From positions 4,282 through 68,281 of IMG/VR virus record IMGVR_UViG_3300025108_000031: a stretch of DNA of 64,000 nt. One strand, 5' to 3'. Shown here one piece after another: positions 45,902-55,608 of this stretch. The stretch comes from a virus. Positions within the stretch are counted from its first letter, which is position 1. Each line of letters begins with the position of its first letter. The notes beneath the pieces are model-generated. The model saw only the letters and a list, made by a program, of their open reading frames with translations, was not told the DNA's origin and did no database searches. Position numbers and translations under genes: made by a program.

Positions 45902-46062
45902 AGTCGTGGTAAAAAGTGTTCGTCGTCTCGTAGCATACCGAACACATCGTGTACGATATCCTGTGCATTGATGAGATTGTTTTCTTGCGCCATCGTTTGG
46001 ATGCGCTCTGCCCAATCAGCTACGGCAGTGAAGGTTTGTTCAGTCATTTTCAGTTGTATCAT
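45898..46062 (-). CDS. 54 aa hypothetical early protein (not in the ORF track)
   Basis: MIQLKMTEQTFTAVADWAERIQ...; fills the gap with overlaps. Confidence 0.55.
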   Translation of the reverse strand: MIQLKMTEQTFTAVADWAERIQTMAQENNLINAQDIVHDVFGMLRDDEHFLPRL

Positions 46063-46375
46063 TGTCTTGGTTTTCTATTCGTCCAATAAACTCGTCGTGG
46101 ATTGTGAAGATGGCGTCCTTGATTTTACCCTTGCCACCCTTGAGTCCGAAGTACTTCTTCACGTCACTTATCTTCCAGTGTCGGTTAGGCTTCATGTCAT
46201 AATCTGCATACAGCCTGATGTCGCGCTTGGTGAGCATGAGATTGTATAGGCATCTCGGTACGTCATTGTTGTTTATGTTCAACATTTTTCGATTTTCGTC
46301 ATGCAACTCCACCCAGAATGGGGCGTTTGCATCTACATTCTTCATGAAGGCTAAGGCTTGCTTGGTTGTCATCAT
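46040..46375 (-). CDS. Hypothetical early protein
   Basis: 111 aa; MKPNRHWKISDVKKYFGLKG. Confidence 0.6.
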   Translation of the reverse strand: MMTTKQALAFMKNVDANAPFWVELHDENRKMLNINNNDVPRCLYNLMLTKRDIRLYADYDMKPNRHWKISDVKKYFGLKGGKGKIKDAIFTIHDEFIGRIENQDNDTTEND

Positions 46376-46542
46376 TGTCCTTTAATTTTTAGGTTAAAAA
46401 TTGTGCCGTCAAAGGCGTTCTCTAGTCGTGTCTTGTTACCGCCATCAGCCTTCATCCATGCTTCGATGAGTGCTGCTTCGAAGCCACCTGCATAGGGCAG
46501 CCTGGCATTGAGCCTGTCGTATTGTTCTTGTGGTCTGTTCAT
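46372..46542 (-). CDS. 56 aa hypothetical early protein (not in the ORF track)
   Basis: MNRPQEQYD...GGFEAALIEAWMKADGGNKTRLENAF; leader motif directly upstream. Confidence 0.65.
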   Translation of the reverse strand: MNRPQEQYDRLNARLPYAGGFEAALIEAWMKADGGNKTRLENAFDGTIFNLKIKGQ

Positions 46543-46560
46543 GTGTTTGAAATTTTGAAT

Positions 46561-46727
46561 TAGTAGCGATAGCGGGAGTCGAACCCACTCTGAACCGTGT
46601 CCGCCCCTCTGCCGAGGTTATCGAAGGCTGTCTTTTGAACGTTTCAGGATAGGTTAAACCCACCAAGACCTTCGAAGCGAATCGTTGCCGATGCCATTCC
46701 CTGTGTTCATGCAGGGTCATCATCGCT
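46561..46727 (-). ncRNA. tRNA-mimic structured RNA (acceptor stem and T-arm with a large inserted domain)
   Basis: 5' AGCGAUG pairs with 3' UAUCGCU followed by A-CUA; T-arm GUGGG-UUCGACU-CCCGC; internal GNRA hairpins. Confidence 0.7.
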
Positions 46728-46730
46728 ATG

Positions 46731-46930
46731 TTTCGGGGAGGGTGTACATCTCAACCTGCACACCCCCACCTACCTTGATTCGTTGTACCCACAAGGTATC
46801 GGGCAACCCTACTTGTAAGTTTGACTACACCTCAGTAAGGTGTTTGGTGTAGCCGAGTGTGTAATGAGCCGTAGACACGCCATATAGCCTACGTTTGCAG
46901 TGGTTGGTTTCGCCTAACTCACACTCATTG
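46731..46930 (-). ncRNA. Structured non-coding RNA region with a possible pseudoknot
   Basis: No ORF; consecutive stems; loop CCUUACU can pair with downstream AGUAGGG. Confidence 0.55.
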
Positions 46931-46937
46931 GGAATCT

Positions 46938-47312
46938 TTATGACAGGAAGTCAGTGACGTTGAGCTGTGCATCCTCGATGCGCAACTCTTGCATTTCGTT
47001 TGCATGGTTTAGCTTCTTAGTAAACCACAGCTTGAACTCCATCATATCCTCACCATGACAACCCCATGAGCCATTCTTGATGATGCTTCTGCGGTGTCCG
47101 TTTTGATCGTACAGGACGAGGAATGCATAGATGTATGGAGCGTTCCTTGCTCCGCCCTCTTCGAGTCGATACTCGATAGCTATCTTTCGATTTCCACCAT
47201 CTATGAAGGTGTTCGTTAGTATGGACTTGTGGTTGTCGGGGTTGGTTCCGATTACTTCCAGTCTGTCCCATGCACCCAGCAAGTGGGTTAGTTTGTTGTG
47301 TGTGCTTTTCAT
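46938..47312 (-). CDS. Hypothetical early protein
   Basis: Start at the ATG at 47312, after a promoter and leader motif. Confidence 0.65.
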   Translation of the reverse strand: MKSTHNKLTHLLGAWDRLEVIGTNPDNHKSILTNTFIDGGNRKIAIEYRLEEGGARNAPYIYAFLVLYDQNGHRRSIIKNGSWGCHGEDMMEFKLWFTKKLNHANEMQELRIEDAQLNVTDFLS

Positions 47313-47347
47313 GTAATTGAGATTTTGATTAGTGCCGATTGGCTTTG

Positions 47348-47378
47348 CAAAGATACAACATTTAAACCCTGTTGTCAA
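47348..47378 (-). promoter_or_regulatory. Early promoter TTGAC-N18-TATCTTTG
   Basis: Consensus match with conserved spacing. Confidence 0.8.
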
Positions 47379-47411
47379 GTTTTTTTTTCTAAGTCTCTGA
47401 CTTACAATGTT

Positions 47412-47594
47412 TTAGAAGGGTAATTCCTCTGCCGTTAGTAGGAACTCGTATCGCGCTTTGTCCAGGTAAGCATAGGCATCTACATCCCTGCCTTGCGCCC
47501 ACACTGCCAGACCTGTCTTTGCGTAGTGTACGCATCGCTCGCTCTTGATGGCTTCACCCTTGCGAATCATAATTTCAAATGTGCTTCGTGTCAT
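47412..47594 (-). CDS. Hypothetical early protein
   Basis: 60 aa ORF. Confidence 0.5.
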   Translation of the reverse strand: MTRSTFEIMIRKGEAIKSERCVHYAKTGLAVWAQGRDVDAYAYLDKARYEFLLTAEELPF

Positions 47595-47850
47595 GATATA
47601 CTAAAATTGATTCGATTTGAGGACTCACTTCATTGAGAAACCATGTAGCCACGCGGCTTTCAGCTTCATCCAGGTCTTCGAGGTATCCGAGTTGGTCAAC
47701 CTCTCCATCATCGCCCACTTCAGGATCAAAATAAGCTGACTCGTAAACAGCCTCATCAAAGGCATCACGCAACTCGTCATCGCTTACAGGCTTGCCTGCC
47801 TCCTTGTATGAGCATAGCATATAGAACTTCTTTTCTTTGTGATTATTCAT
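47575..47850 (-). CDS. Acidic hypothetical early protein
   Basis: 91 aa ORF. Confidence 0.6.
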   Translation of the reverse strand: MNNHKEKKFYMLCSYKEAGKPVSDDELRDAFDEAVYESAYFDPEVGDDGEVDQLGYLEDLDEAESRVATWFLNEVSPQIESILVYHDTKHI

Positions 47851-47960
47851 AATTTCTCGTCTTGGTATCTGTCATGCTGTTCGTCCGCTTGGTCGTAGTA
47901 ATCGCGCTCCTCGCATTCGTCATCTGACGGGTAGTCGTACCCTTCTCTCCATGTACTCAT
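47847..47960 (-). CDS. 37 aa highly acidic peptide (not in the ORF track)
   Basis: MSTWREGYDYPSDDECEERDYYDQADEQHDRYQDEKL; ATGA overlaps at both ends. Confidence 0.6.
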   Translation of the reverse strand: MSTWREGYDYPSDDECEERDYYDQADEQHDRYQDEKL

Positions 47961-48271
47961 TTGATTGAAGTTTCGAAGTTTGGGACTCCCAAGGTGTATC
48001 CTCGTCGAGTGTCATGTAGCATGAGCATGGGCTGCATTTCTACAGGTTCATTGATGCCCCATATATCCTTGTCATCTGTGATGACTCCTTGCTCCTTCAG
48101 GTAGACATATGCTTGCCCTACGATATCGCCTATAGCATAGTCGTATGAGAGCCACTTGGTGACGTTGTTACGTTCGTCCTTGATTCTAACCCTAGCACCT
48201 TTGGTGTTGGTTGGACTGAAAAACTCGATGTGCAAGGCACGGAGTCGGGGTATGTGATTTGTAAGATTCAT
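47957..48271 (-). CDS. Hypothetical early protein
   Basis: PTNTKGARVRI motif; start at the ATG at 48271 downstream of a hammerhead. Confidence 0.65.
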   Translation of the reverse strand: MNLTNHIPRLRALHIEFFSPTNTKGARVRIKDERNNVTKWLSYDYAIGDIVGQAYVYLKEQGVITDDKDIWGINEPVEMQPMLMLHDTRRGYTLGVPNFETSIK

Positions 48272-48290
48272 GTGTTTGAGATTTTGATTT

Positions 48291-48340
48291 GACACAGACG
48301 CTTCGCAGCGTTTCGACCACTCAGGTCTCGTCAGTGTGCC
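48291..48340 (-). ncRNA. Type I hammerhead ribozyme, copy 2
   Basis: GGCACA-CUGACGA-GACC(ugagu)GGUC-GAA-ACGCU(gcga)AGCGU-C^UGUGUC: full core and three stems. Confidence 0.93.
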
Positions 48341-48507
48341 TGACTATTGAGTCTGTGGATTTCATCGAGGAGCCACCACCTCTGCTCGTCAGTGAACGCC
48401 CCGTACGTCTGAAGCTGACGCTGCTCGAAGTACTTTGCTTTTTCCATGTTCTGCTTGAACATGTGGTAGGCAATCTTGGGTAAGTACCCGTTTTCGTATT
48501 TGCTCAT
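48331..48507 (-). CDS. 58 aa early protein flanked by hammerheads
   Basis: MSKYENGYLPKIAYH...NSQAH; leader motif before the ATG. Confidence 0.7.
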   Translation of the reverse strand: MSKYENGYLPKIAYHMFKQNMEKAKYFEQRQLQTYGAFTDEQRWWLLDEIHRLNSQAH

Positions 48508-48525
48508 GTGATTGAGATTTTGATT

Positions 48526-48575
48526 GATACAGACGCTTCTCAGCGTTTCGTCCATGCAGGACTCATCAGTGTACC
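48526..48575 (-). ncRNA. Type I hammerhead ribozyme, copy 1
   Basis: GGUACA-CUGAUGA-GUCC(ugcau)GGAC-GAA-ACGCU(gaga)AGCGU-C^UGUAUC. Confidence 0.93.
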
Positions 48576-48796
48576 TTGGGTGCTTCGTCCCACTCGTCCT
48601 TGGGTATGTCATGCCAGTCTGTCCAGTACATCATTTCATCTTCGAACGCTTCGTCCAGTGTAGCGTAGTCGTAATTCTGACAGATGCGGAGTGCATCCTT
48701 TTCATACTTTACGTAGTAGAATCCAAGACCTTCGAAGTACCAACCCTCGAACATAGGTTCGTTGGTGATTGTGCAGTAGCGGGGTGCTTTTTCCAT
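48566..48796 (-). CDS. Hypothetical early protein
   Basis: MEKAPRYCTITNEPMFEGW...YWTDW; follows a promoter and leader motif. Confidence 0.65.
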   Translation of the reverse strand: MEKAPRYCTITNEPMFEGWYFEGLGFYYVKYEKDALRICQNYDYATLDEAFEDEMMYWTDWHDIPKDEWDEAPKVH

Positions 48797-48833
48797 GTGT
48801 GAGATAATTGAGATTTTGATTTGGAAGACGATG

Positions 48834-48865
48834 CAAATATACAACATTCAAACACCGAAGTCAAA
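48834..48865 (-). promoter_or_regulatory. Early promoter TTGAC-N18-TATATTTG
   Basis: Consensus match with conserved spacing. Confidence 0.8.
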
Positions 48866-48898
48866 TTTATTTTCATTTCCTCAGTGTTTACAGGGGTT

Positions 48899-49498
48899 TC
48901 AGAGCCATCGGTTTCGTATGGTGACCCATATGATAGCCTGCAACTCGTAAGGCTTGTACCCCATGCTCCGTGCTAGCTTGCAGAAGTGCACGCTCAGTCG
49001 GTCGTATTGCAGGGGTGTTACGCTCGTCTGTACTTCCTTGGGTGTCTGCGATGTGGTCACGAAGGCACGAAGCATCCACTTGTCAATCGTAACAACAGAC
49101 TCATCCATCATACCCACATTGAGGGCGAAAGCGTGAGTTTTTCTAGCCTTGCGGAGCATTTCGATATCTCCGCTCAAGATCGCCCACGCCCTGCGTTTGT
49201 TGCTAGTGTATGTGCATACCTTGACAGACTCCATGGATTCACCATTCACGAAGGCTTGGATGAGATTGAATGCATCAATCTTGTTACGCTCCCACTTGTT
49301 GTTAGGTGAGAGTGCGCTGATGACTGCAGCCGCCACGACCTTGGATATGTTGAACGTTACCGATAGGTACTCAGCAAACTCCATGGCTGAAGCATACCAT
49401 GCTTTACCCTCTCGGATTTCGTCCTCCGTCGCACGCCCCGTCCACGATTTAACGTGAGCGGTGACGCGCTTCAGTGGGTATGTGCTTAAGCTATTCAT
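48899..49498 (-). CDS. Conserved phage protein (ALSP..W, KTxAF, VTIDxW, QAxxW family; possibly HhH-glycosylase-like fold)
   Basis: Motif pattern recalled from phage proteins; function uncertain. Confidence 0.55.
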   Translation of the reverse strand: MNSLSTYPLKRVTAHVKSWTGRATEDEIREGKAWYASAMEFAEYLSVTFNISKVVAAAVISALSPNNKWERNKIDAFNLIQAFVNGESMESVKVCTYTSNKRRAWAILSGDIEMLRKARKTHAFALNVGMMDESVVTIDKWMLRAFVTTSQTPKEVQTSVTPLQYDRLSVHFCKLARSMGYKPYELQAIIWVTIRNRWL

Positions 49499-49640
49499 AT
49501 TCCTTAAGGTATTCTTGAAATTCAGCGATTAACTCATTGGCACTTTTATTGTCGTTCAGGTACTCATGCCTGTCACCAGTCCAATGTGCGGCGCGGCGCA
49601 GTAATTCCACGCCTTCAAGGGGGTTATCTTGATTTTTCAT
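49491..49640 (-). CDS. 49 aa hypothetical protein (not in the ORF track)
   Basis: MKNQDNPLEGVELLRRAAHW...; coupled on both sides. Confidence 0.55.
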   Translation of the reverse strand: MKNQDNPLEGVELLRRAAHWTGDRHEYLNDNKSANELIAEFQEYLKEYE

Positions 49641-50329
49641 GCTTCGAAGTTCATTGTGAGCTGCTCAGCTTCTAGAAGCGTAGCTTCTAATTCAGCGTTG
49701 GCGGCTTGGATTTTAGAACGTCGGACGCCTTCCTCAGGTGTCTCACCAGGCAGGAGCTTGAGTGCTAGCTGCTCACGCTTGGCTGCCTTACGCTCCACCA
49801 CAGGCACTTCCATTCGAGGCTCGAAGGGTTGAGCCTCTTTGCCAGTGAGAGCGTGAACAACCTTCGTTTTCTTGACCTTACCAACCTTGTTGGCAGTCGC
49901 AGTCCGTGCTTGTGCTTGCTCAAGCCCATCCTCGCTTGAACGCTTGGGTCGCTTGACAGCCTTCGTTGACTTTGCAGGCTTGGAAGCCTTTACAGGCTTT
50001 TTCTTACGCTTAGGCTGGATTGACATCTGGTAATCCAAACTGAAATTGTAAGGCTTCGTAGGCTCAGGGTCTGGGACGTCATGGGAAAGGATGAGAGCAA
50101 CAAGTTGCTTTTTAGTCATCTTCATGAGTCGCTGCTCGTCGGTCATCGCAGGCTTGGATGCCTTGGTTGCCTTGGGTGCCTCTGTGGGCTTCGCCTTCCG
50201 CTTGGGCTTGGGTGTCTGAGCCGCTCGCTCTGCAGCGTATCGAGCCTTGTTAGCTGCCTTTCGCTCAGCTTTAGTGAACTTGCGCCCCGTCTCAGGGCAG
50301 TGGGTTGGGGTGTATGTCTGCTTTGACAT
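49637..50329 (-). CDS. Lys/Ala/Pro-rich basic protein, first early gene
   Basis: Histone-H1-like KASKPAK low-complexity tracts. Confidence 0.65.
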   Translation of the reverse strand: MSKQTYTPTHCPETGRKFTKAERKAANKARYAAERAAQTPKPKRKAKPTEAPKATKASKPAMTDEQRLMKMTKKQLVALILSHDVPDPEPTKPYNFSLDYQMSIQPKRKKKPVKASKPAKSTKAVKRPKRSSEDGLEQAQARTATANKVGKVKKTKVVHALTGKEAQPFEPRMEVPVVERKAAKREQLALKLLPGETPEEGVRRSKIQAANAELEATLLEAEQLTMNFEA

Positions 50330-50373
50330 GTGATATGGGATTTAGATGAACCAACTTCGGTGTCGATTCGGGG

Positions 50374-50404
50374 CAAAGATATATCATTCAAGGACCTTTG
50401 TCAA
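50374..50404 (-). promoter_or_regulatory. Early promoter TTGAC-N18-TATCTTTG
   Basis: Consensus match with conserved spacing. Confidence 0.8.
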
Positions 50405-50479
50405 GCACTATTTTCGAAATCCTAGCAAATACAGGGGTTTCAGAGGCAAATTTTTTGGTTTTGGCTCAGACATGGGGCT

Positions 50480-50542
50480 GCATCACGACGCATAATGACG
50501 CATCATTAGGGGTCATGTGTGGGTCATATGTGGGTCATGTGT
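50480..50542. repeat. Short tandem repeats (3x about 10 bp GCATcAtGAC-like, then 3x 11 bp GGGTCATRTGT)
   Basis: Seen directly in the divergent non-coding region. Confidence 0.8.
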
Positions 50543-50904
50543 GGCGGTGCGTATTTCATGGATGTGTACCTACGTGAGTATCGGTTCGATTTTTGTGTTT
50601 TTAATTAGGGGGTGATTGTTCGTGTTTCCTCACTGACTAACGTAGTTAGAAATGCTAATACAAAGCTGTATTGCTAACAACAAAAGCTGAAAACGTAGGC
50701 GAAAACTGCACGGGGTATACCCCACGGGGTTTACGCAGGTCGTTTCTGATGTGTGTACGCTACGTGTGTATATATATATAATCCCCGAGATCTGTGTTAC
50801 GCACCTTTTTTTCAGGCATGCTTCACCGAGGCTATTTCATCGAAACACACTTAAAATGCTGTTTATCAATGCCTTGCTGGGTTCAATTAAACTGCTTTAT
50901 AGGC

Positions 50905-50935
50905 TTGACTTTGTAAGAAAAAAGTTGTAACTTAG
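50905..50935 (+). promoter_or_regulatory. Rightward promoter TTGAC-N18-TAACTTAG
   Basis: Same 18-nt spacing; one mismatch to TAnnTTTG. Confidence 0.55.
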
Positions 50936-51090
50936 CCAAACCTTGTTAGCGATAAACCTTCGAAGCTGTTTTATACCTACGAAGCTGTCTTTAGGATTAC
51001 TTATGTAAGTAATAAATCAGTAGCTCCGAAGCGTCATTCAAACTAATGAAGTTGTGAAGGCACAAAAACTGTATTAATTATATTTGCAGT

Positions 51091-55457: not shown

Positions 55458-55531
55458 GCTCTCTTAGCTCAGTTGGTTAGAGCGTCCGACTCATAATCGG
55501 CAGGTCCCAGGTTCAAGTCCTGGAGGGAGCA
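55458..55531 (+). tRNA. tRNA with CAT anticodon (probably Ile2, otherwise elongator Met)
   Basis: Cloverleaf GCTCTCT/AGGGAGC, anticodon loop CT-CAT-AA, T-loop TTCAAGT; no encoded CCA. Confidence 0.9.
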
Positions 55532-55534
55532 CTC

Positions 55535-55608
55535 GCACCAGTAGCTCAGTTGGATAGAGCATCTGCCTTCTAAGCAGACGGTCACAGGTTCGAGCCCTGT
55601 CTGGTGTA
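55535..55608 (+). tRNA. tRNA-Arg(TCT)
   Basis: Cloverleaf GCACCAG/CTGGTGT, anticodon arm TCTGC-CTTCTAA-GCAGA. Confidence 0.92.

Follow-up and report, generated by a model that had tools for sequence, protein, structure and literature searches.

We analyzed a 64,000-nucleotide (nt) stretch of DNA, referred to here as the window, that corresponds to bases 4282 to 68281 of the IMG/VR virus record IMGVR_UViG_3300025108_000031 (68,281 bp; rated complete by CheckV) and in which two predicted type I hammerhead ribozymes, HH-B and HH-A, bracket a single open reading frame (ORF) of 58 amino acids (aa) on the minus strand. PHROGs matches in the record include a terminase large subunit, a portal, virion proteins, a primase/helicase, and an exonuclease, and given the terminase, portal, and primase/helicase matches the source is, by its gene content, a tailed double-stranded DNA (dsDNA) marine phage of 68 kb. 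Structural genes occupy the plus strand, and a leftward early/replication block extends over approximately 36 to 50.4 kb. The ribozyme pair is located at the promoter-proximal end of this block, amid small ORFs without known families, and all of the ORFs neighboring it lie on the minus strand.

Anatomy of the locus

HH-B (48526 to 48575, minus strand) reads, from 48575 to 48526, GGUACA-CUGAUGA-GUCCUGCAUGGAC-GAA-ACGCUGAGAAGCGU-C-UGUAUC, with stem I GGUACA/UGUAUC, core CUGAUGA...GAA, stem II GUCC-UGCAU-GGAC, and stem III ACGCU-GAGA-AGCGU. HH-A (48291 to 48340, minus strand) reads, from 48340 to 48291, GGCACA-CUGACGA-GACCUGAGUGGUC-GAA-ACGCUGCGAAGCGU-C-UGUGUC, with stem I GGCACA/UGUGUC, core CUGACGA...GAA, stem II GACC-UGAGU-GGUC, and stem III ACGCU-GCGA-AGCGU. 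Stems I, II, and III are 6, 4, and 5 bp long in both copies, the pairs adjoining the core are intact, and the topology is type I, with loops closing stems II and III and stem I left open. The invariant core (C3 U4 G5 A6 N7 G8 A9 ... G12 A13 A14) is complete in both copies, and the cleavage triplet of each is GUC. Cleavage is predicted after C17, which is at 48532 in HH-B and at 48297 in HH-A, so that the cuts would fall between 48532 and 48531 and between 48297 and 48296.

The RNA predicted between these cuts (48297 to 48531, minus strand) is 235 nt long, and our structural scan returned the same fragment, 48531 to 48297, and the same spacing of cleavage sites that had been proposed for this locus in the original prediction. 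The fragment holds, again as proposed, one leader motif and the complete 58-aa ORF (48331 to 48507, minus strand). Hammerhead cleavage leaves 5'-hydroxyl (5'-OH) and 2',3'-cyclic phosphate ends, and such ends are substrates of RtcB; by this established chemistry, the fragment would begin with a 5'-OH (48531) and end in a 2',3'-cyclic phosphate (48297). The 58-aa ORF begins MSKYENGYLPKIAYH and ends QAH, and its stop codon is the UGA of the HH-A core CUGACGA. In the same way, the upstream 76-aa ORF (MEKAPRY...KVH; 48566 to 48796, minus strand) runs into HH-B, where the UGA of the core serves as its stop codon; both upstream ORFs in the window thus finish with ...CAC UGA.

The cut at HH-B would create a 24-nt 5' untranslated region (48508 to 48531), within which lies the leader AATCAAAATCTCAATCACATG (48505 to 48525, minus strand). 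The leader is repeated: with as many as 3 mismatches allowed, it occurs five times on the minus strand versus 0 times expected, and the five copies of AATCAAAATCTCAAWCACATG stand directly before minus-strand ATGs between 45605 and 48525 of the window. The second copy (48269 to 48289, minus strand) precedes the downstream 104-aa ORF (47957 to 48271, minus strand; weak phrog_3199 match, E value 0.0003), for which the HH-A cut would set the mRNA start at 48296. No Shine-Dalgarno sequence was obvious in the leaders by eye. Four near-identical promoter-like sites (TTGACA/T-17-TATCTT/TATATT) were found at 50404, 48864, 47378, and 45674, and some of the leader copies follow them. The site closest upstream of the pair, TTGACT-17-TATATT (48836 to 48864, minus strand), is sigma-70-like and agrees with the consensus at 10 of 12 positions, and the transcript carrying both ribozymes likely starts there. 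Given that the leader is found both after promoter-like sites and after the predicted cuts, primary and ribozyme-made 5' ends would share the same leader.

Conservation of the hammerhead fold

The pattern of core and stem III shared by the two copies occurs twice in the window versus 0.01 times expected, and a structure-aware pattern run over the whole 68,281-bp record returned only HH-A and HH-B. We then scanned IMG/VR with a pattern that prescribed the core, stem III, and a portion of stem II but not stem I or the N-N pair of stem II, which yielded 25 loci. A structural scan of these loci and the window identified 32 hammerheads, all of which have 6 of 6 stem I pairs. Twenty-two distinct hammerheads from the window and 17 of the loci were aligned, and 98.8% of stem cells pair, with 11 of 15 pairs changed on both sides, although stem III and part of stem II were preset by the fetching pattern. 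The few unpaired cells come from rows L026_2 and L026_3, which are misaligned in stem III. None of 500 shuffles reached the observed values, and slid partners paired at only 22 to 36%. The six positions of stem I include GC, AU, UA, CG, and GU pairs. The invariant core columns are unchanged in 22 of 22 sequences, the A15.1-U16.1 pair is A-U in all 22, and H17 is a non-G residue.

A covariance model built from this alignment (R1) scored HH-B, a training sequence, at 72.3 bits and HH-A at 72.2 bits, with no other match in the window, and it recovered two hammerheads outside the training set (locus L040) at 67.7 and 54.1 bits. By their fold, HH-A and HH-B are genuine type I hammerheads, and we infer from this that they can cleave themselves.

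Position of the ribozymes relative to genes

The ribozymes are placed in a consistent way between genes. In the window, the ATGs of the 58-aa and 104-aa ORFs follow the predicted cuts by 24 and 25 nt, and an ATG-started ORF begins 20 to 27 nt past the cut in 26 of the 32 related hammerheads. On the other side, 26 of 32 have an open frame of 40 codons or more whose end falls in the range of -14 to +1 nt relative to the C that begins CUGA, and in 26 of 32 the upstream ORF has its stop codon within stem I or the CUGA core. With a stop codon in this position, translation termination and ribozyme folding should compete.

We propose that an early transcript is cut by both ribozymes into linear single-gene mRNAs, which would uncouple neighboring early genes, and we consider this reading probable. 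One leftward early transcript, probably initiated at the 48864 to 48836 site, would carry in order the 76-aa ORF, HH-B, the 58-aa ORF, HH-A, and the 104-aa ORF, and both type I ribozymes would be constitutive and would punctuate the early operon. Each ribozyme would fold between two cistrons, with the 5' strand of stem I and the CUGA core overlapping the final codons of the upstream gene together with that gene's UGA, and the cuts 24 to 25 nt before the next ATG would split the polycistronic RNA into linear single-gene messages. The upstream piece would keep the ribozyme, folded compactly into its stem II and III hairpins and terminating in a 2',3'-cyclic phosphate, as a possible protection of its 3' end, and the downstream piece would start with a 5'-OH and the same short A-rich leader as the promoter-proximal genes. 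The stability and translation of neighboring early genes could thereby be uncoupled. A ribosome terminating at the core UGA should block folding, so that cutting and the translation of the upstream gene may be coupled.

Relatives and possible mobility of the small early genes

The arrangement recurs in relatives of the phage. A 93% identical locus (L010) has kept both ribozymes, 235 nt apart, and a complete 78-kb record that is approximately 79% identical at the locus (G001) has both ribozymes in a 320-nt unit with an 86-aa version of the ORF. In HH-A of G001, stem II (GGCU/AGCC) and stem III have both changed in a compensatory manner, and the cleavage triplet is GUA. Two other relatives lack parts of the region. 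L028 lacks exactly the sequence corresponding to window positions 48806 to 48526 (the 76-aa ORF and HH-B), with the break inside the shared leader, and in L017 the sequence corresponding to approximately 48504 to 47331 is replaced between two leader motifs, so that the 58-aa ORF, HH-A, and downstream genes are missing. Judging from these break points, the leader seems to serve as a boundary at which small early genes recombine.

We also examined metagenome loci that encode a homologue of the 58-aa ORF, taking the best 80 of 181 confirmed loci, all on contigs of at least 1 kb; some of these are the same contigs as the viral loci (for example, L165 and L028), and the counts are therefore not counts of independent lineages. 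R1 and the structural scan agreed on 34 hammerheads in this set. A hammerhead lies directly downstream of the homologue in 23 of the 80 loci. Six of these 23 are tight two-ribozyme units (235, 235, 259, 236, 235, and 236 nt), with the upstream hammerhead 25 to 26 nt before the ATG, and five are two-gene units of 569 to 575 nt, in which the upstream ribozyme is one gene further away. In the remaining 12, an upstream hammerhead was not found in the available flank, which is only 157 nt in L184. None of the best 80 of 181 loci has a second hammerhead downstream of the gene's own, as would be seen in an assembly of a permuted or repeated unit-length molecule. The ribozyme pair is not a fixed module.

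We considered that the ribozymes could mainly be passengers or boundary markers of mobile cassettes (leader, small ORF, and hammerhead) that related phages exchange when they recombine at the repeats formed by leaders and ribozymes, with effects on the RNA, if any, being secondary. The break points in L028 and L017 do fall at leader motifs, the leader is present five times on the minus strand, and the downstream hammerhead accompanies the 58-aa ORF family in 23 of 80 loci with an upstream partner that varies. However, passive boundary DNA would not retain compensatory changes in all three RNA stems, nor would it hold a fixed distance of 20 to 27 nt to the next ATG, and we consider this explanation unlikely as the main account of the locus. 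A role as a cassette boundary is compatible with a processing function and does not replace it.

To place the pair among other phage sequences, a broader scan of IMG/VR for type I hammerheads was performed, which returned at least 120 loci, 8 of the 120 being without a hammerhead by structural scan. Among the 120 loci listed, 45 locus-strands carry at least two hammerheads, and there are 77 adjacent hammerhead pairs, 72 of them distinct, that enclose units of 183 to 7018 nt. Thirteen of the 72 distinct units listed are 350 nt or shorter, and most of these hold one small ORF. In four of the IMG/VR loci (L064, L073, L134, and L144), arrays of four to six type I hammerheads share one orientation over a few kb, and many of these ribozymes bracket single small ORFs. 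Given the 13 short units and these multi-ribozyme contigs, a single small gene bracketed by ribozymes is routine in phage contigs.

Fate of the predicted 235-nt RNA

The original prediction was that the phage may release a monocistronic, possibly circular RNA. Release of a single-gene 235-nt RNA is a reasonable expectation given the consensus core, the covariation, and a layout shared by 26 of the 32 related hammerheads. The circular step gained no support, owing to a conserved mismatch in the stem that would have to form, an ordinary fold, and the lack of a ligase match in the phage. In that version of events, either a host ligase of the RtcB type or the hammerhead reaction run in reverse, across a chimeric stem I, would join the ends of the 235-nt RNA and yield a circular, exonuclease-resistant mRNA for the 58-aa protein, and we regard this as very unlikely.

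Several features of the fragment are nevertheless those that closure would call for. Its predicted ends are an established RtcB substrate, RtcB is common in bacteria (the PF01139 control was positive in 10 of 14 genomes), and the joined ends form a chimeric stem, GGCACA/UGUAUC, that pairs at 5 of 6 positions, with the single mismatch (C.A) that had been predicted. However, the window and G001 both keep this C.A mismatch, as do all six tight units from the metagenome loci, to a protein identity as low as 69%, while the stem I of each ribozyme itself is perfect. That the mismatch is kept while each ribozyme compensates internally indicates that selection is seen on the cis stems and not on the trans stem. 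In ViennaRNA, the pairing probability of the chimeric stem in the monomer is approximately 1e-4, and the minimum free energy of the circle (-59.0 kcal/mol) is no better than that of the linear form (-63.3 kcal/mol). The monomer folds with a z-score of -1.29 (21 of 200 shuffles fold at least as well), and it has no rod-like fold that would stop a re-formed hammerhead from cutting again. Its length is 3 x 78 + 1 nt and its ORF ends in UGA, unlike the predicted coding circular RNAs described in the part of PMC13725137 that deals with them, which are rod-like, have a length that is a multiple of three, and contain an ORF without a stop codon.

The distribution of ligases and of ribozymes points in the same direction. 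Profile searches of the phage found no RtcB, Rnl2-type, or LigT-type ligase, which leaves room for a host RtcB. The phage also gave no match to PF09511 (T4 Rnl1), a result that is uninformative given that the control was found nowhere. A flanking pair of ribozymes is not inherent to the gene, as seen in the division of the 80 homologue loci into 6 tight units, 5 two-gene units, 12 with the downstream ribozyme only, and 57 with none, and as seen also in the relatives that are without HH-B (L028) or HH-A (L017).

Compatibility of stem I strands between neighboring ribozymes was assessed as a possible signature of circularization and was rejected as evidence either way, as the length cut-off was picked after seeing the data and the loci are related. 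Among the 72 units listed, a perfectly cross-compatible stem I was found in 9 of 13 units of up to 350 nt versus 19 of 59 longer ones (Fisher P = 0.025 with this post hoc cut), and the trend with length is gone without a cut-off (Spearman rho = -0.07, P = 0.59). For nonidentical stem pairs the corresponding counts were 4 of 8 short and 8 of 48 long units. Relatedness and the small number of stem I types that contain a UAA stop both confound the comparison, in which identical units were counted once (77 reduced to 72).

The junction that had been suggested as diagnostic of a circle, AAGCGTC followed by TGTATCAATC, is identical to the genomic HH-B sequence and thus cannot distinguish a circle from unprocessed precursor. 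A diagnostic read would need at least 10 nt on the 5' side of the joint, so as to pass position 48306, at which HH-A (C) and HH-B (A) are distinguishable; in strains like L010, whose two ribozymes share an identical stem III, it would need at least 22 nt. No joint was seen in four RNA sequencing runs, though the 58-aa ORF has zero coverage there and these runs are hence no test.

Totivirus tandem ribozymes 186 to 399 nt apart are proposed to give circular RNAs in the relevant part of PMC13725137, where retrozyme pairs are cited as producing them. A preprint (10.1101/2022.07.19.500677) describes, in the portion concerned with such elements, a 286-nt circular RNA with a type II hammerhead in one polarity that is matched by 13 marine-metagenome clustered regularly interspaced short palindromic repeat (CRISPR) spacers, and also a pistol-bearing "circle" that is really a segment of a dsDNA phage; we treat both cases as hints only. 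In their account of clustered phage hammerheads, Perreault et al. considered circular or spliced products and reported that circles were not detected (PMC3088659). Our full-text literature search did not find a demonstrated circular RNA made by the hammerheads of a DNA phage.

Overall, the circle is without support, and the indirect evidence leans against it. We hold it to be just as improbable that short bracketed units more generally, the 235-nt unit included, are sealed by host RtcB into small circular mRNAs and are a source of some marine "viroid-like" circles. Were this true, phages would gain exonuclease-resistant early messages, and some of the viroid-like circles of marine metatranscriptomes would have a DNA-encoded origin. 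A circular excised piece would provide the first example of a ribozyme-made circular mRNA encoded by a phage, a substantial result, and nothing that we found points that way.

Related sequences in RNA libraries

Twenty-four sequencing runs share sampled words with the locus, all of them labeled as marine or seawater metagenomes except one coded organism, and six hold at least half of the words; one of these six may be the source run. Four runs are recorded as RNA (a fifth was guessed to be), each with 5 to 7% of the sampled words. For the four RNA runs (X20, X22, X23, and X24), we searched assembled Logan contigs at a likeness from 88%, and contigs of this kind cannot show RNA ends. The upstream gene is covered by contigs from relatives over 48552 to 48858 (X20), 48566 to 48908 (X23), and 48730 to 48916 (X24). 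Contigs that stop 20 to 34 nt before the HH-B cut, with no loose end, were considered as a sign of cleavage, and this was rejected since the ends of contigs do not mark those of RNAs; being a repeat, the ribozyme core can moreover break assemblies, and the contigs also cross the promoter-like site. In X22 and X23, contigs with a summed depth of up to 63 match only 48286 to 48335 and then run into the leaders and genes of other phages. Hammerhead-bearing phage sequences are thus present in marine RNA libraries, which may also contain DNA.

Evidence weighing against the proposed transcript processing

A number of observations weigh against our proposal that both ribozymes cut an early transcript into linear single-gene messages. 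In the RNA libraries, depth was 0 over 48371 to 48504, within the 58-aa ORF, in the contigs of all four runs, and contigs bridge the cut sites of other phages' hammerheads, which implies either uncut RNA or contaminating DNA in these libraries. The promoter at 48864 to 48836 is a consensus match and is not in itself evidence of function. Among the homologue loci, 57 of 80 have no hammerhead, and the 58-aa gene therefore does not need one.

Other points concern the ribozymes themselves. Against Rfam, HH-B scored 22.2 bits with RF00163 (E value 0.042; gathering cut-off, 34) and HH-A scored 25.9 bits with RF03152, the RAGATH-1 hammerhead (gathering cut-off, 56.3), and a scan in gathering mode gave no match for either. 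RF00163 was built mainly on eukaryotic type I copies, and a score under its threshold thus lowers the case for membership in the Rfam family and not the assignment of the fold. RAGATH-1 gave the best Rfam alignment for HH-A, spanning the hammerhead core, stem I, and stem III, whereas the upstream hairpin of that family is weakly matched; with this and a score so far under the cut-off, membership of HH-A in RAGATH-1 was rejected. When HH-A is folded alone, the minimum-energy structure in ViennaRNA favors a competing hairpin, GUCAG-GCACA-CUGAC (48341 to 48322, minus strand), over stem I, and the pairing of GUCAG with CUGAC would sequester the stem I strand and the CUGA core. The UCAG before stem I is also present in L005, L009, L010, and L028 and is not present in G001, and its recurrence may merely reflect the conserved ...SQAH C terminus of the protein. 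When the flanks were viewed by eye for a tertiary contact between stem I and loop II, there was no evident covarying partner of loop II.

The sub-threshold Rfam scores of both copies and the hairpin predicted for HH-A would also suit decayed or chance look-alikes that no longer cut, to which we give next to no credence, as all invariant core positions are present and the core-adjoining pairs intact, covariation is strong, two sites with the shared pattern occur in 68 kb versus 0.01 expected, and the sites are kept, with compensatory changes, in relatives at 79 to 93% identity.

The small proteins and genomic surroundings

The 58-aa protein belongs to a conserved small family of unassigned function, with 14 homologue clusters, none of them named, that share the motif NGYLPKIAYH...YF..RQ..YG; Y26, F27, R30, Q31, Y35, G36, and E49 are invariant in the family alignment. 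An AlphaFold2 model predicts a three-helix bundle (predicted local distance difference test [pLDDT] score, 90.6), and a Foldseek search of the PDB gave no match at an E value of 0.001 or lower, the best being 5.2. No Pfam or PHROG family was found for the 58-aa or the 76-aa ORF. Just upstream of the ribozyme operon, a 199-aa gene (48899 to 49498, minus strand) matches DUF7178 and phrog_3842 (E values of 8e-36 and 4e-43) and is the only neighbor with a family. A blastn comparison of window positions 46000 to 51000 with a phage sequence collection gave no match. Elsewhere in the window, two adjacent tRNA genes are encoded on the plus strand at 55458 to 55531 and 55535 to 55608 (69.2 and 70.4 bits).

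Discussion

In this study, we describe a marine phage locus in which two predicted type I hammerheads of complete consensus core flank one small gene of an early operon. The sequences show the motifs, where they lie, how they covary, and that the layout recurs; that the RNA is transcribed and cuts itself in cells, what becomes of its ends, and what the phage gains are inferred. The layout has been known in phages since 2011, and the present pair is a further example of it and not a new principle. It is, however, a clean and well-conserved instance that lends itself to testing. Since the upstream gene takes its stop codon from the UGA of the core, translation and ribozyme folding must compete, and the cut would leave the same short leader that promoter-proximal genes have. 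Relatives with both ribozymes, one, or none around the same gene also form a natural set of deletion variants.

Several known systems invite comparison. Retrozyme-type units are repeated noncoding retroelements with identical ribozyme copies, stable and highly paired circles, and copying by reverse transcriptases. The retrozymes and metazoan type I hammerhead circular RNAs resemble our pair, as far as the descriptions in PMC4918200, PMC7229834, and PMC7761336 go, in having two hammerheads a few hundred nt apart on one strand that release a monomer with ligatable ends. The present unit is unlike them in that it is single copy and protein coding, its ribozymes differ from each other, its chimeric stem is mismatched, and its fold is ordinary.

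Another comparison is with the RNA viruses studied by Lopez-Galiano et al. in 2026. In some linear RNA viruses, self-cleavage just upstream of an ORF enables its translation, as stated in the section of that paper concerned with these viruses (PMC13725137). The likeness lies in the position, just upstream of an ORF, of a type I hammerhead whose helix III is long, where the cut makes the 5' end of the RNA from which that ORF is translated, and the tandem pairs of the totiviruses enclose units of similar size to ours (PMC13725137). Those described there are nonetheless eukaryotic RNA viruses with cap-independent translation. HHphage, the hammerhead of the haloviruses HF1 and HF2, lies a few nt upstream of an early-gene start codon, with a mapped transcript 5' end within 3 nt of the cut according to the passage on them in PMC3088659. 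The position shortly before the start of an early phage gene is thus shared with HHphage; the differences are that HHphage belongs to a virus of archaea, has a variant core, and occurs singly, with no pair around a gene in that description (PMC3088659).

A precedent for the layout itself is provided by the clusters of Perreault et al. (2011, PLoS Comput Biol; PMC3088659). In its treatment of prophages, that paper reports that single genes, or short blocks of them, often have more than one hammerhead at their flanks, and it proposes the production of single-gene mRNAs from long phage transcripts as the role of clustered hammerheads. Transcripts of approximately 2 kb were cut in vitro in three tandem arrangements, those of Clostridium scindens, Azorhizobium caulinodans, and Agrobacterium tumefaciens (PMC3088659). 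A 2019 review repeats the idea of polycistronic processing and states, where it takes up the topic, that the purpose of the ribozymes needs more work (PMC6765202). Our locus matches the clusters as they are described there, with two co-oriented hammerheads within a few kb that bracket a gene in a co-directional phage operon (PMC3088659). It differs from them in that its activity is predicted from sequence alone, whereas activity was demonstrated in vitro for those clusters and also in vivo for A. tumefaciens (PMC3088659). It differs further in that both of its copies are type I, its host genome is that of an uncultured marine phage, and the upstream stop codon lies inside the ribozyme core.

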